This document shows positions 46 to 5,318 of a stretch of DNA of 5,435 nucleotides, piece by piece. The notes beneath the pieces were generated by a model. The model was not told the origin of the DNA. It searched no databases and saw nothing but the letters and a program-made list of their open reading frames with translations. Where the stretch lies: positions 1 through 5,435 of IMG/VR virus record IMGVR_UViG_2609460344_000010; one strand, written 5' to 3'. Position 1 is the first letter of the stretch; every line of letters starts with the position of its first letter. This stretch comes from a virus (taxonomy: Duplodnaviria; Heunggongvirae; Uroviricota; Caudoviricetes). Position numbers and translations under genes: made by a program.

Positions 46-70
46 AGAAGGCCTTCCGGCCTTCTTTATT
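46..70. terminator. Putative intrinsic terminator hairpin at the end of the tail operon, possibly bidirectional
   Basis: Perfect 8-bp stem AGAAGGCC (46..53) / GGCCTTCT (58..65) with loop TTCC, followed on the plus strand by TTATT. It sits immediately downstream of the chaperone stop codon (71..69) on the minus strand, where the trailing U-tract is weaker (GAAUAUCAUUAUAUA). Confidence 0.5.
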
Positions 71-590
71 ACTGTGGCTGCTCAGGCCATTTAATGGCGT
101 TAAATTCAGCTTCTGTTTTAATGGCGGGCAGTTCCATTTTCTTCACCTGACTGATGTATGCCATCCATTGGGTAAGTGCTGCTCTGTCTTCATCGCTGAT
201 GGTGTCCAGTTGTAGCTCCGTTCTCCAGTCATTAATTTTTTCATATGCCTGATTAAGATATGACTGGCGCAGTGCTTCCGCTTTTTTGGTATAGTTAACC
301 GGGAGTTGTGAGATGACACCATTATCAAACTTCCAGTTTCCTGAAATATCAGTACCTTCAGGTAATTCGTCTGTCTCAACAACGGAAAAACCCGCAGGAT
401 ACAGCGCCGAAGCATCCTGTGATATTGAGCAGATAACACCGCTGTCAGGTGTTATGCAAAGTTTATATTTTTTGGTGAATAATGGCAGGGATTCGTAGAA
501 ATCCTTACCATCTTCACTCTGGAAATACTGAACATTATTACCATATGGCATATTTTCAGGATAATAACGGGTTATATTTTTTAGTTCCAT
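69..590 (-). CDS. Tail fiber assembly chaperone (P2 gpG / Mu U / lambda Tfa family)
   Basis: 173-aa ORF with ATG at 590..588, preceded by GGAGG with a 5-nt spacer. Size, position directly downstream of the fiber gene, and motifs (SEDGKDFYE, ISQDASALYPAGFSVVE, C-terminal ...WPEQPQ) match my recollection of the P2 gpG family. Confidence 0.8.
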   Translation of the reverse strand: MELKNITRYYPENMPYGNNVQYFQSEDGKDFYESLPLFTKKYKLCITPDSGVICSISQDASALYPAGFSVVETDELPEGTDISGNWKFDNGVISQLPVNYTKKAEALRQSYLNQAYEKINDWRTELQLDTISDEDRAALTQWMAYISQVKKMELPAIKTEAEFNAIKWPEQPQ

Positions 591-641
591 AAAATCCTCC
601 TGGAAATAAATCTGTTTTAAAATATATTATTTACTGACTAT

Positions 642-1532
642 TTATAACTGAGATACCGTAATCCATGTACCTCCGACTAATTTTTGCAGGGGTCTGAATG
701 CTATAAAATCGTTTGAAGCATCAACTTTACTGTCAATCTGCAGGCCTGCCATAACATTACCGTACGCAGAGTAATATGCCCCACCGTACATTACCTGCCT
801 GTTCTCTGCTCCCAGCCTGATATCCTGGATATATCGGGAATCCGCATCCTGCTGTGTTATACCAGAAGTGATGTTTATGTCCTGCGTCCCGTCAAAGGGA
901 ACCCCATTAATATTTCTTGGGGTGGCGAGTCTATTCGCGGCAACGGCGGTGCCGTCCGATGGCAGAGCATTCGCCGCCCTGTTTACCGTTTCCCGTAAAC
1001 CGACGTTATCGATAAAAGCCCCTTTATCCGGAATGTCTGCGCCGTTCTGCTCCCTGCGCAGGTAACGGTTATCACCTTCGCTTTTGCTGTAAACATCCAG
1101 ATTATTACGGGCGGTTCCCTTATTCTCCAGGTCGGCGAGATTCTGATCCTTCGCCAGGGCATTAACGTCAGCGGGACCAAGACTGTTTTTTGTGGCAAGC
1201 GTCCCCAGACCAAGATAACCACGGGCCAGACGCTGGGCCTCCGCACCGGCATCAGCAATTTCTTTCAGGTTATTTTTCCGGGAAAAGGCATTCGCAGCGA
1301 TAATGGCTTTAATGGACAGCGTAAGCTGGTTTAACTGCGCCTTATCCGGCTGAATACTGGCTTCAGCCAGAATATTCAGCAGTTCGGCCTGGAGAATATT
1401 CAGCCAGTCCTGACCAATCCAGCTGATACCTTTTTGTCCGTCACCTTCGGTAAACCAGGTGGTGGTATTACTCTGCGCCGGTGCCAGCGCAGGCATATTC
1501 GCCACGCCGGAATTATTATCAACATGAAACAT
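642..1532 (-). CDS. Tail fiber protein (compact; Mu S / P2 gpH-type C-terminal region)
   Basis: 296-aa ORF with ATG at 1532..1530, preceded by GAGGAG with an 8-nt spacer. A central GLRETVNRA motif (encoded 975..1001) and a C-terminal region (...[11 protein letters not shown]...[21 protein letters not shown]) resemble, from memory, the receptor-binding ends of P2 H / Mu S-type fibers. Followed directly by a Tfa-like chaperone gene. Confidence 0.8.
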
Positions 1533-2092
1533 TAAATAGTCTCCTCTTCATGGCTGTTTGCATACACGTAAATAAACGTCTGCCATGCAGGCTTATAACG
1601 GTTCAGAATACATTCCAGCGCACCGCCTTCATAAATACGCAGCGGCGTGAGAATATCATCCAGCACATTCATATTCCGGTAGCCGGTTTCACTGTTAATC
1701 GTGACAATACTGACCCACTGTGAATCCGGTGATGGCTGAATATCTATTTCATAACCAAACTCTGCCGCAAACCGGATATAAAATTCACGGTTAAGAGAGG
1801 GTTTCATCCGGTATTTATTCCCGGCATAACGCTGACGCTCCTGAATGGTTGCGCCGGTCATATCACATTCCGGTAACCCCAGATAACGCTCCCAGTCTTC
1901 CAGCAGCAGACGGGATGAATCAGGAAAACGTTCTGCCAGCATCTGGTTACCGGTCCAGGAAACACGCTCCGTGGAATGACTGAGGCCCAGGCACAAAGCC
2001 GCAAGAACGGATGACGGCCGCTTATCCCATGCCAGCCCGTCAGGCAGCAACTGCAACAGGGCGCGCTGATGCGGGGTCAGGGTTACAGCCAT
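1532..2092 (-). CDS. Baseplate/tail protein, P2 gpI / Mu gp48-like
   Basis: 186-aa ORF between the J-like gene and the tail fiber. ATG at 2092..2090 is preceded by AGGAG with a 7-nt spacer. Its start overlaps the J stop by 10 nt (ATGGCTGTAA), and its stop overlaps the fiber start (TAATG, sharing base 1532). Confidence 0.75.
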
Positions 2093-3168
2093 GTGATTTC
2101 TCCTACCGTCAGCAGCTCACTGTCTCCCGCCTGAACTGACGTCAGCGGACTGCGCACTTCAAAATCCTCCAGATTTTTCACCCCTGCCACCGCCCGCCAG
2201 AAAGACGACGGCAGAACCAGACCGCCGGGCCGGGATTCGTTATACAACAGGTCGGTCAGCGCCTGTTTTACGGCCGCCTGATTCTCCGGTGTTTTCGGGA
2301 TGATCCTGATGCTGAAGGGCACCGGCTTATTGGTCAGTTTAAACACGGTCACCGTCGGCCCCAGAGGCTGTCCGACAGGCTGGCCGGTCGCCGGATCATC
2401 ATGACTGCGGATATAATCCGCCACCCGCTGAACATCACCGTCACCGGGGAAAATGTCCGGGTTATTATCCTGAACAAACGTTACCCCCACGCTGCCCGCC
2501 TGCGGCCATTCCGGGCGGCACCATGCCCGCGTCACGCCCGGCACTTCACGCGCCCAGCGTTCAAAATCATACTGCGTGCCGCCGGACGGTGGATTCTGCA
2601 CCCGGAAAACCAGACGGGAAAGCAGCTCCGGCACGGTTTCCACATCCGCACCACCGGTGATCCCCGTTCCGGTCACCGTGGCCGTCTGGTTGATCCCCGC
2701 CTGCGGTGTGATAAATGTCAGTTTTGTCCCTGCCGGGGCATTCCCCGCACGACCGGCACTTTCGGCTTCCACACTGACATTCAGCGTACCGGCCTTACCG
2801 GTCAGGGAGGTGGTGATACGGTAAACAACACCATCGCTTCGCTGAAGGAGTACGCCTTCCGTGATCCCTGCATCCGTGGTCAGCATCAGTTGTACCGGTC
2901 CGTCAGCGCGGGAAGCCGGTTTACGGATGACACCCCAGAATGCGCAGTGTTTCAGCAGTTCGGCTTCATCGGCTTCGGTCGGGATGATCTGACGCGCAAT
3001 CCAGGCCAGATGCTCATGCTCCTGAGCAGATAACCCTGCCTGAGCGTAAGCAATGGCATTCAGGGTGGTTTCATTCACGCCCGGCTGCGAACCGGGCAGG
3101 CGCTGGCTGATATCCTGTTGTGTCTGTGTGATCAGTTGCGCCAGTGGTAAGGGCTGATAAGGCATCAT
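2083..3168 (-). CDS. Baseplate J-like protein (Mu gp47 / P2 gpJ family)
   Basis: 361-aa ORF in the canonical position between the W-like and I-like genes. ATG at 3168..3166 overlaps the upstream stop as ATGA. A G-rich Shine-Dalgarno (AAGGGGGA) lies immediately upstream. Confidence 0.8.
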   Translation of the reverse strand: MMPYQPLPLAQLITQTQQDISQRLPGSQPGVNETTLNAIAYAQAGLSAQEHEHLAWIARQIIPTEADEAELLKHCAFWGVIRKPASRADGPVQLMLTTDAGITEGVLLQRSDGVVYRITTSLTGKAGTLNVSVEAESAGRAGNAPAGTKLTFITPQAGINQTATVTGTGITGGADVETVPELLSRLVFRVQNPPSGGTQYDFERWAREVPGVTRAWCRPEWPQAGSVGVTFVQDNNPDIFPGDGDVQRVADYIRSHDDPATGQPVGQPLGPTVTVFKLTNKPVPFSIRIIPKTPENQAAVKQALTDLLYNESRPGGLVLPSSFWRAVAGVKNLEDFEVRSPLTSVQAGDSELLTVGEITWL

Positions 3169-3602
3169 TCCCCCTTCATATCAGCATAAAAAATCATCGG
3201 ATGTCTGCTTCCGTCCGGCAGGGTGATTTTCACGGAAAGCGAAAGGCGAGCATGCCCCACACGCATGGCATGACATACCACGGATGTGGCAGCACCGCTT
3301 TTATGCAGCCACGCCAGCGCTTCATCAGCATAGGCCTGTGCACGGCTGACCACGGAGGACAGCGTCTTTTCACGGCTTAACAGCCAGAGACGGGAGCCAA
3401 CGGGGCGCTCCCGGAAACTGTCTCCCCACCATCCCCGACGGTCACGGGTGCCGTCAGGGATTTCATCGGAATCCAGCGCCCGCCTGTCCGTAAACAGTGA
3501 AATAATGACCGCCGTCAGCAGACTGTCATCCGTCAGAAGATCTGCGCCGTTCAGTTGCAGGGAACCGCAACCCTGATCCCAGACGACAGCAATATCAGCC
3601 AT
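3165..3602 (-). CDS. Baseplate wedge protein, Mu gp46 / P2 gpW / T4 gp25-like
   Basis: The ORF track extends this ORF to 3746, but the plausible start is the ATG at 3602..3600, preceded by GGGAGGA with a 7-nt spacer. That start overlaps the spike stop (minus strand ATGGCTGA). Product is then 145 aa, typical for gpW/gp46. The stop overlaps the J-like start as ATGA. Confidence 0.75.
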   Translation of the reverse strand: MADIAVVWDQGCGSLQLNGADLLTDDSLLTAVIISLFTDRRALDSDEIPDGTRDRRGWWGDSFRERPVGSRLWLLSREKTLSSVVSRAQAYADEALAWLHKSGAATSVVCHAMRVGHARLSLSVKITLPDGSRHPMIFYADMKGE

Positions 3603-4103
3603 TCTCTGGTCCTCCCGTTTTGCTGCCTTCACCGTTATCCTGATGCACATGGCCGGAATAGGTGATCCCGGCAATAACGGCATCAGACATCGTGAACAGC
3701 CCGTCTGATTTACCTGTACCATCAAGCACGAAATTACCCTTAACATGCAGGTTTTTATCCACCGTCACATTGCCCGTAAAGGTGGCCTCCGGCGTATCCA
3801 CCCGCATCCCCTCATCGGCGTAAATCTCCAGCATTTTGCATGTCACAATAATGCGACCATCCTTTGTTAACCGTATCCGGTGCCCCTCATGGTGATACAC
3901 CCCCGTATCTCCGGCGGTAAGTCCGGTCGGGCGGCTGCGCCGGTCTTCCACCACAAGCACCACAGCCTGATCCCGCTGTCCGCCAGACAGGCAAAAAAGG
4001 TTTCCGCACCCGGCAGGGGAACGCTGATCTGCCCGTACTGCTGGGGACGCTCCACATCATCAAAGGTTTCGCCGTCCATGCCGGTGAGCTGCACATTCTG
4101 CAT
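3595..4103 (-). pseudogene. Baseplate spike, Mu gp45 / P2 gpV-like, interrupted by a frame change; either a true frameshift or a homopolymer sequencing error
   Basis: Two adjacent minus-strand ORFs in different frames (3867..4103 and 3595..3963) together read as one spike-like protein: ...YGQISVPLPGAETFF in the first, then CLSGGQRDQAVVLVVEDRRSRP... in the second. The frames switch at the A6 run 3993..3998 (T6 on the coding strand). Adding one T there fuses them into a protein of about 169 aa. Confidence 0.6.
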
Positions 4104-4157
4104 TTTCAGCGCGTCATTGTGCCGGTCAGAACACCACGCCCAAACAACAGACGAACA

Positions 4158-4173
4158 CCCCGCATCACCGGGG
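4158..4173 (-). other. Short GC hairpin (CCCCG, 6-nt loop, CGGGG) in the hub-spike spacer; possible attenuator or RNA structure
   Basis: Perfect 5-bp all-GC inverted repeat 4158..4162 / 4169..4173. On the minus-strand transcript it is followed by a U-rich stretch (UGUUCGUCUGUUGUUUG, 4157..4141). Confidence 0.3.
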
Positions 4174-4196
4174 CAAGAAGGCGGCTGAACACTTCG

Positions 4197-5318
4197 TCAT
4201 TCATCATTGAATTTAATCCCCTGTTTTTTCATCTGCTGGCGAATAAAGGCATCAACATCGTCACCGGAACCACCCCGGCCCTTACTGTCCGGCTCTGCCG
4301 GAACGATAAAGCCGTCACGCGGTGCCAGTACCAGCCGGGTGACTTCCCCGTTATGTTCATCAAGTAAAAACTCCACCTGACAGACCAGCAGTTCAGTCTG
4401 TTCTATACCGAAACGCAGGGCTGAAACACCGGTCAGCAGATTGACATCCCATAACCGGCCATCATCCCGGAACCAGCCACGCACGGTGGCAGAAAACCGT
4501 TCTGAACGGGCAATCGCACGGCGCATTTCACGCAGGGCACGCTGCCGTGCACCGGTGGTGTCTGTCTGTTGATCGGCGAGGATGATTTTCGGCCGGTAAC
4601 GGCCGATCGCACTCACTGTCACGCCCACAGGTGCGGCCAGCGGGCGGCGGTCACTGCATCCCCGCATGCCACCACCACGCCCGTGCCCCCGGACACGGTA
4701 TTCACTGTATCGTCCTCGCCAGTCCACGTTGTGATCCAAATCCAGCAGATTATCTCCCAGCACCAGTCTGTCCGTCTGCTGGCTTCCTGCCTGGGTGAAC
4801 ACCAGATCGCCGTCAGCATTACTGGTCACCAGCACCCCGCGATGCCGGGCAGCACGTGTCAGCGCATCTGCCACGGTTTCTGAGTTTTCCAGTGTGAAGG
4901 TGGAAAAGGGCCGGGCTGCCGTTGCATCATTTACCTGCCAGCGCACCGTGACCCCGAACGGAGCACACAAATCTGAAGCAATGTGCTCCAGCGTGCGGTT
5001 CCTCCACTGGCTGCCCGGATGAATGGCTGAACAGTCCACCAGGTCACCGGTTTTATCCCGTCCGCTGAGCGTGATCTGAAAACGCGTGGCGCTGATGCGC
5101 TGCCGGACCTGATCCAGCCAGCCAGTGATCACAGGCTGACCGTCAATGCGCAATTCCAGAGACTGACCGGCACGGACGGATGACGGAAGGCGTACACCGG
5201 GCATCATTACCCCCAGTTCAAAGGAGCCCGCCAGATGTTCAAGAGAGCGACGAACACTCACCGTCAGCCAGCCGGAAAAAATCTCACCGCCCAGATACAG
5301 TTCAACCCTGCTGCTCAC
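4197..5318 (-). CDS. Baseplate hub protein, Mu gp44 (P) / P2 gpD-like
   Basis: 373-aa ORF at the expected position and size for the hub gene of Mu-type baseplate clusters. Start is GTG at 5318..5316, preceded by GGAGG (5329..5325) with a 6-nt spacer. The start lies 17 nt inside the 3' end of the upstream ORF. Confidence 0.8.

Follow-up and report, generated by a model that had tools for sequence, protein, structure and literature searches.

The gene for the baseplate spike of a Mu-like prophage cannot be read in a single frame in the 5,435 nucleotides analysed here (the window), and the question raised by this locus is whether its interruption belongs to the phage or to the way in which the sequence was obtained. 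An earlier note on this DNA had described one frame switch at a run of six A (A6; T6 on the coding strand), and had proposed a sequencing or assembly error in the homopolymer, an inactivating mutation in a decaying prophage or a slippage-dependent expression switch. Comparison with relatives reveals that the spike gene is broken in the deposited contig by two single-base losses, neither of them in A6/T6. The observed feature is most likely not biological; with a probability of roughly 70%, the split would be a consensus artefact derived from two collapsed paralogous prophages.

The window is an entire draft contig (JNRD01000137.1, 5,435 bp) belonging to GCA_000704505.1, the assembly of Escherichia coli 2-460-02_S3_C3. 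This isolate came from the faeces of a child in Tanzania; its reads, 100 bp long, were produced on an Illumina HiSeq 2000, and MaSuRCA 2.3.2 was used to assemble them (PMC6222053). The contig is short and isolated, and it is recorded with two samples, which may reflect either a duplicate listing or an independent assembly, the latter of which would count against an artefact. It contains a baseplate and tail-fibre module of a Mu-like prophage on the minus strand, in which a gp44/GpP-like baseplate hub gene (5318..4197, 373 aa) is followed by the spike gene (4207..3595), an intact gp46-like gene whose start overlaps the spike stop (3602..3165, 145 aa), a gp47/J-like gene (3168..2083), a gp48/YmfQ-like gene (2092..1532), a tail-fibre gene (1532..642) and a tail-fibre assembly gene (590..69). 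The precomputed Pfam order on the contig (GpP-like, Phage_Mu_Gp45, GP46, Baseplate_J, Phage_Mu_Gp48) likewise places the spike between the gp44/GpP-like hub gene and the gp46/W-like gene, and the gp45 gene of Mu is flanked in the same way by gp44-like and gp46-like genes. The six neighbouring genes are full length, and no stops, truncations or IS elements that would signal decay were found in the module.

Profile and homology matches identify the locus at 4207..3595 as a baseplate spike gene of this Mu-like prophage (Mu gp45/P2 gpV family), whose product is homologous to Mu gp45, the trimer that forms the puncturing tip of the contractile tail. Once the two missing bases are put back, the 204-aa translation matches TIGR01644 (phage_P2_V) with 188.5 bits (cutoff 46.75) over profile positions 1-191 of 192, and PF06890 (Phage_Mu_Gp45) with 88.8 bits (cutoff 24.1), and it aligns with the Mu gp45 chain 9ki1_V (PDB 9ki1 chain V, 197 residues) at E = 4.8e-64, residues 2-200 against 4-194; these matches bear out the gp45/gpV-type identity proposed in the earlier note. 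End-to-end colinearity with 9ki1_V is obtained only after both missing bases are restored, and the match takes in the N-terminal stretch encoded by a separate 33-aa ORF. The likeness to Mu gp45, of which C-terminal fragments are also represented (3vto, 3vtn), covers nearly the full length of the repaired protein, and an HVH near its C-terminus aligns with the HIH of Mu gp45, which is reported to be the metal-binding motif at the spike tip. The window differs from Mu in that the nucleotide match is only ~70% and concerns the first half of the gene, and in that its gene is interrupted twice.

In intact relatives, the spike gene measures 615 nt (204 aa) and is read in one frame, whereas in the window it measures 613 nt, no single uninterrupted ORF of ~195-210 codons spans it, and alignments to relatives run through three successive frames. 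The gene is thus split, as had been noticed, but into three frames rather than two and by two missing bases rather than one. The first frame, a 33-aa ORF on the minus strand (4207..4106), holds the true N-terminus: the opening 30 codons are homologous to residues 4-33 of Mu gp45, at the N-terminus of that protein, and the ATGATG start at 4207 overlaps the TGA that ends the gp44-like gene, as the start does at this position in all relatives, so that the start assumed earlier at ATG 4103 leaves the N-terminus out. The minus-strand ORFs 4103..3867 (78 aa) and 3963..3595 (122 aa), offset by one base, were correctly described. The former, deposited as KDY55831.1, is the second frame and is homologous through codon 40 (...ETFFACL), not for 37 codons as first supposed, the remainder being out-of-frame read-through; on its own this fragment reaches 49.6 bits against PF06890, with matched residues 1-40 only. 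The latter is the third frame and encodes the C-terminal portion of the spike with its HVH motif. Of these two ORFs, the depositors annotated the former in full (78 aa) and only 3834..3595 of the latter (KDY55830.1, 79 aa), as separate fragments.

The location of the two losses becomes apparent when the window is compared with the two main allele families of the gene in E. coli, each taken here as a single representative: A-type from NCCP15648 (WP_072105406.1) and B-type as WP_000980532.1, which is common in STEC. The two types are 81.5% identical within the spike gene; the repaired protein aligns without gaps to the proteins of both, with 97% identity for A-type and 90% for B-type. At the first lesion (minus strand, between 4117 and 4118), one base is missing and CACACATG has become CACAATG; the codons are ACA-CAT-GAC in A-type, ACA-ACG-GAC in B-type and ACA-AT-GAC in the window, and the loss lies within a run of three consecutive A/B mismatches at gene positions 91-93 (A CAT, B ACG). 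This lesion splits the first 30 codons off into the 33-aa ORF. At the second lesion (minus strand, 3983..3984), one G is missing (GGG to GG) and CTGGGCGG has become CTGGCGG, where A-type has CTG-GGC-GGA and B-type GCT-GGC-GGA; it falls within another triple-mismatch run, at gene positions 223-225 (A CTG, B GCT). The window sequence at this site, TGTCTGGCGG, equals A-type sequence that continues as B-type with the register shifted by one base, across a CTGG microhomology; alternatively, the alignment can be viewed as TGT-CTGGGC against TGTGCTGG-C, where taking both gaps gives the window sequence TGTCTGGC. Either lesion is reproduced exactly by a parent-to-parent join offset by one base.

The frame therefore changes at ACA|ATG and CTG|GCG, away from T6. 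The A6 run is indeed present at 3993..3998 on the plus strand (T6, for Phe-Phe, on the coding minus strand), but it has wild-type length and is not a shift site: CCTTTTTTGCC is identical in the window and in all intact A-type relatives in the nucleotide alignment, B-type carries GTTTTTCTG in place of the run, homology in the frame of ATG 4103 continues for three codons beyond T6 (ETFF-ACL), and the missing G of the second lesion lies 9 bases downstream of the run on the coding strand. A homopolymer change at A6/T6, either as a sequencing error or as phase variation, was thus considered and discarded, since the run length is the same in every intact A-type copy. The comparison of T7 with T6 at this locus, advised earlier, has its answer in the same alignment, T6 being the ordinary length; the relatives, for their part, are single ORFs and not the pairs of ORFs that had been envisaged along with a genuine T6. 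The repair suggested earlier, insertion of one T to give ...ETFFCLSGG..., restores the right length with three wrong residues, the homology-based repair being ...ETFFACLGG... (Mu ...EALIACVGA...). Assembly error had been among the options offered, yet the lesion is not a change in homopolymer length. Six-base homopolymers are common in the window (8 in 5.4 kb), so the closeness of A6/T6 to one of the lesions is coincidental; a homopolymer nearby is not evidence of a frameshift site when intact relatives place the break nine bases away.

The locus was found in 228 records in a search of complete E. coli genomes, and it forms a single 615-nt ORF in all 26 copies from IMG/VR and in six annotated complete-genome copies (L001-L004, L013, L014). 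The A-type (NCCP15648) and B-type (STEC E2865, FWSEC0008) genes, annotated as 'phage baseplate assembly protein V', share the flanking genes and the start/stop overlaps of the window; they are intact 615-nt ORFs, whereas the window is a nucleotide patchwork of both in which two mismatch clusters have each lost one base. The B-type gene, intact in FWSEC0008 and E2865, is frameshifted in one lineage recovered from three samples (L010-L012), in which one C is gone from a C-run. Other broken relatives comprise P0002-P0005 and P0007, in which T6 has become T5 (P0027 being the partner fragment named after S. sonnei), and two metagenome assemblies (L007, L008) in which TTTGGCC has become TTTGCC; in-silico removal of one T from the A-type gene yields P0003 exactly. 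All these relatives are interrupted at places other than the lesions of the window. In the S. sonnei-named fragments P0003 and P0027 and in L010-L012, the same gene is likewise divided into N-terminal and C-terminal ORFs by a one-base loss, but the lesions of P0003 and L010-L012 are in homopolymers (T6 to T5; C-run) and are probably real because they recur in several independent samples, whereas those of the window lie outside homopolymers and are unique to one contig. A T6 to T5 frameshift of this very gene is therefore known in other assemblies, and the idea of the earlier note was reasonable in kind, if inapplicable to the window. P0102, a 169-aa protein 98% identical to the repaired one, was examined as an independent instance of the first lesion and rejected; its DNA (L007-L009) carries a different deletion or a scaffold gap.

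Neither lesion was found again in an independent isolate or assembly in the collections searched. A protein lookup returned the 78-aa product only from the contig of the window; among ~15 billion proteins, the repaired allele and the products of either lesion alone were absent, and the chimeric gp44-, gp46- and gp47-like proteins occurred in no other assembly. Exact DNA probes across the lesion junctions gave 0 matches in metagenome, genome and viral collections, while the positive controls, the intact A-type and B-type junctions, matched 17 and 9 viral contigs, respectively. The sources listed for the chimeric proteins are NCBI-derived only, with no Logan re-assemblies, whereas the tail-fibre and tail-fibre assembly proteins, encoded in pure blocks, do list Logan; the absence of the chimeric proteins from Logan weakly favours an artefact, provided that the reads are public.

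The composition of the window points in the same direction. Over 4,568 aligned bases, the window agrees with A only at 445 sites and with B only at 279, and just 25 sites are private or three-way, mostly within one patch; when the same analysis is applied to 89-3156, a truly distinct lineage, 29 private and 24 three-way sites are obtained. Since A and B are single representatives, some of the single-site switches may be ordinary within-family variation, and the number of A/B switches was set aside as a test for an artefact, being weak alone because natural genomes also switch often; private-site counts, k-mer novelty and the coincidence with mismatch runs were used instead. The gene contains six runs of at least three consecutive A/B mismatches, together 20 of its 615 nt, and both lesions fall in two of the six (P ~0.001-0.003 for two independent random deletions both in such runs). 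The gp44-like gene is a B/A/B/A chimera, and its product is the sole member of its 90%-identity cluster. In the first 100 nt of the spike gene, B and A alleles alternate every few bases, and the interleaved block at 4110..4189 (minus strand), in which a private substitution (G at 4166) accompanies the first lesion, is contained in no natural copy: all 38 that were compared are 9 or more bases away from it, the best match among 5,426 complete E. coli genomes reaches 92.2% identity, and a 34-nt exact probe of it found nothing in the metagenome collection. A third natural lineage was considered as the donor of this block, given that TNDALK in some members makes ACA-AAT-GAC-GCG conceivable, and was dismissed in view of that best match of 92.2% and of the absence of the block from all 38 natural loci.

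A test independent of the chosen representatives gave a concordant picture, for the natural 21-mers of the 38 loci cover the window except for 146 nt (3966-3982, 4110-4147, 4169-4189 and 4599-4668), that is, at or near the two lesions and in a scrambled patch of the gp44-like gene; the stretch 3966..3982 (minus strand) is immediately 3' of the second lesion. A mixture of two known parents with novelty confined to junction zones is the pattern expected of collapsed paralogues, which further supposes that both parental types can reside in one genome, and this is shown in other genomes: IMG 2606217106 yields both an A-type (L026) and a B-type copy (L034), and some complete genomes hold up to 4 copies of the locus.

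These observations can be accommodated by a sequence of events in which the isolate, or the DNA sequenced from it, most likely contained one A-type and one B-type Mu-like prophage, two types that share long identical stretches outside the spike gene. The final stage of MaSuRCA is a Celera overlap-layout-consensus assembly, and its overlap-consensus step may have merged reads of both prophages into one layout, from which a contig alternating between A and B would result. At consecutive A/B differences, the aligner would place one gap in each sequence, and a column-wise consensus that takes the gap twice would lose a base. Each real prophage copy would then keep an intact 615-nt spike gene, there would be no regulation at the site, and the junction strings of the contig, CACAATGACGCG and TGTCTGGCGG, would be expected in no read. 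The window resembles collapsed-repeat consensus errors, a known class of short-read artefact, in its short contig, the alternation of two known paralogues, the indels at ambiguous alignment and the chimeric proteins restricted to one assembly; it departs from the class in its blended zones, whose sequences diverge strongly for a typical collapse, and the case made here is built on sequence patterns. Against an artefact, the simple deletion of one base from an A-type gene describes either lesion equally well when that lesion is taken alone, and an A/B divergence of ~20-25% in the blended zones is high for merging by an overlap assembler unless identical flanks anchor the overlap.

The lesions may nonetheless be genuine, with a single prophage whose spike was inactivated in vivo by two one-base deletions or by patchy gene conversion in slipped register between co-resident Mu-like prophages, an explanation that we consider unlikely on balance, although it is the main rival of an artefact. 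The lesions are, after all, present in the deposited sequence, several further assemblies have this gene interrupted by different lesions (P0002-P0005, P0007; L010-L012; L007, L008), phages of this group are naturally mosaic, and the repaired frame, without further stops and with mostly synonymous differences from its relatives, fits a very recent inactivation. Two independent losses 134 nt apart amid six intact neighbour genes are, however, improbable, and the coincidence of both with A/B triple-mismatch runs makes them still less likely, at the P value given above. Heteroduplex repair of A and B strands of equal length would leave the length unchanged, and the natural A/B recombinants in the panel (L024, L028, STEC2018-607) have clean, indel-free crossovers; moreover, most switch points in the window are surrounded by <10 identical bases, too few for homologous recombination, as also for a path through a k-mer graph, and the lesions and blended blocks were seen in no other genome searched. 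The version in which the patchwork itself is real, two Mu-like prophages of one E. coli having traded numerous tiny tracts in vivo and slipped in register by one base where mismatches cluster, so that one spike copy was inactivated, is judged quite improbable; it would amount to an unusually fine-grained and error-prone homeologous gene conversion between prophages. If the gene were truly a pseudogene, the prophage would no longer build an infectious tail, which would make it one more defective prophage, of little consequence.

Programmed recoding, by which a full-length spike would be made through ribosomal -1 frameshifting or transcriptional slippage (for instance at T6), possibly with translation restarting at ATG 4103 once it has stopped at the TGA (4108..4106), appears very improbable, and the earlier note was right to rank a slippage switch last. 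Both shifts are in the -1 direction, one slip of tRNA-Phe back on UUUUUU would yield ...ETFFCLSGG..., and the TGA and ATG 4103 are only 2 nt apart; but recoding would have to occur twice, the sequence at the true shift sites is not slippery, and a product started at 4103 would miss 34 N-terminal residues conserved in Mu gp45. Neither zero-frame zone contains an X XXY YYZ heptamer, and no Shine-Dalgarno-like motif was detected ahead of ATG 4103 or GTG 3963. The two-frame arrangement is not conserved either: all intact relatives are single-frame, those of A-type with the same T6 and those of B-type without the run, so that nothing selects for slippage. Least credible of all, and practically negligible, are random per-base sequencing errors unrelated to a second prophage copy, arising from low coverage or platform indels. 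A draft assembly and a short contig would be in keeping with them, but Illumina data contain few indel errors, the combination of Illumina and MaSuRCA is not prone to homopolymer errors, the lesions lie outside homopolymers in any case, and the coincidence with A/B mismatch runs and the interleaving of alleles would be left unexplained.

KDY55831.1 and KDY55830.1, together with their chimeric neighbours WP_032189694.1, WP_032189692.1 and WP_032189691.1, present in RefSeq and UniRef as one-off proteins, are probably not real proteins, and the main value of the analysis lies in database hygiene, by flagging a probably chimeric contig. The only other oddity of the module, and a third instance of the register-shifted A/B blending seen at the lesions, is the in-frame scrambled patch of the gp44-like gene (4599..4668, minus strand), where A and B strings are joined out of register while the indels together preserve the frame, and which encodes the private peptide MRGCSDRRP where A has KRGDSESAAR and B has HAGDALTAGT.

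The gp46-, gp47- and gp44-like genes of the contig (positions 2083-3602 and 4197-5318) are each, at the nucleotide level, a chimera of the A-type and B-type allele families found at this locus in E. coli, and the corresponding proteins (WP_032189692.1, WP_032189691.1 and WP_032189694.1, respectively) are each known from this contig only. Within the gp44-like gene, a scrambled patch at 4599-4668 is composed of strings from the A-type and the B-type sequence that are shifted in register, remains in frame and encodes the private peptide MRGCSDRRP; the 373-aa protein bearing it, WP_032189694.1, is the sole member of its own 90%-identity cluster. These three proteins may be assembly chimeras that have been taken into RefSeq and UniRef. 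Two samples are listed for the contig in the contig look-up; the second may be a repeat of the same record or a separate assembly.

Mu-like prophages of both types occur together in IMG genome 2606217106 (A-type locus L026 and B-type locus L034), and some complete E. coli genomes contain up to four copies of the module; such coexisting copies are required before repeats can collapse in a short-read assembly. Regarding sibling isolates, 2-460-02_S3_C2, another colony of the stool sample that gave the isolate with the contig, encodes a gp47/J-like protein of 281 aa that is short at its N-terminus (record P0044, KDY56043.1), and assemblies from Logan and ENA contain this protein too (5 contigs). 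The type given for colonies C1 and C2 is O111:H12 ST3281, and C3 is absent from the listing (PMC8923075).

Frameshifts in the spike gene recur in other assemblies and at more than one site. A T6-to-T5 frameshift is present in several independent assemblies (protein records P0002-P0007, P0027 and P0031), with P0003 borne by four contigs and P0027 by seven, and the C-terminal partner fragments of the frameshifted gene carry the source name Shigella sonnei; these copies probably represent a real, lineage-specific pseudogene. The site affected is the same homopolymer that the earlier note had flagged. In the B-type lineage represented by loci L010-L012 (3 samples), the frame is lost through a C-run that is one C shorter, and in two metagenome assemblies (L007 and L008) through the single-base change of TTTGGCC to TTTGCC. 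Several neighbouring genes are broken as well in L011, which suggests that this locus derives from a noisy long-read assembly.

At the tail-fibre end, positions 1-680 match the A-type representative NCCP15648 (L001, 7113-7792) with 95% identity on the opposite strand; compared with that genome, both the gene for tail-fibre assembly and the variable 3' part of the tail-fibre gene lie in reverse orientation. In the metagenome locus L007 (9095-10427), a 1,161-nt segment is flanked by 86-nt inverted repeats, 94% complementary, and a resolvase/invertase gene lies directly downstream. This is an invertible host-range segment resembling the G segment of Mu, and its flipped orientation is the one present in the window; the contig terminates within this segment.
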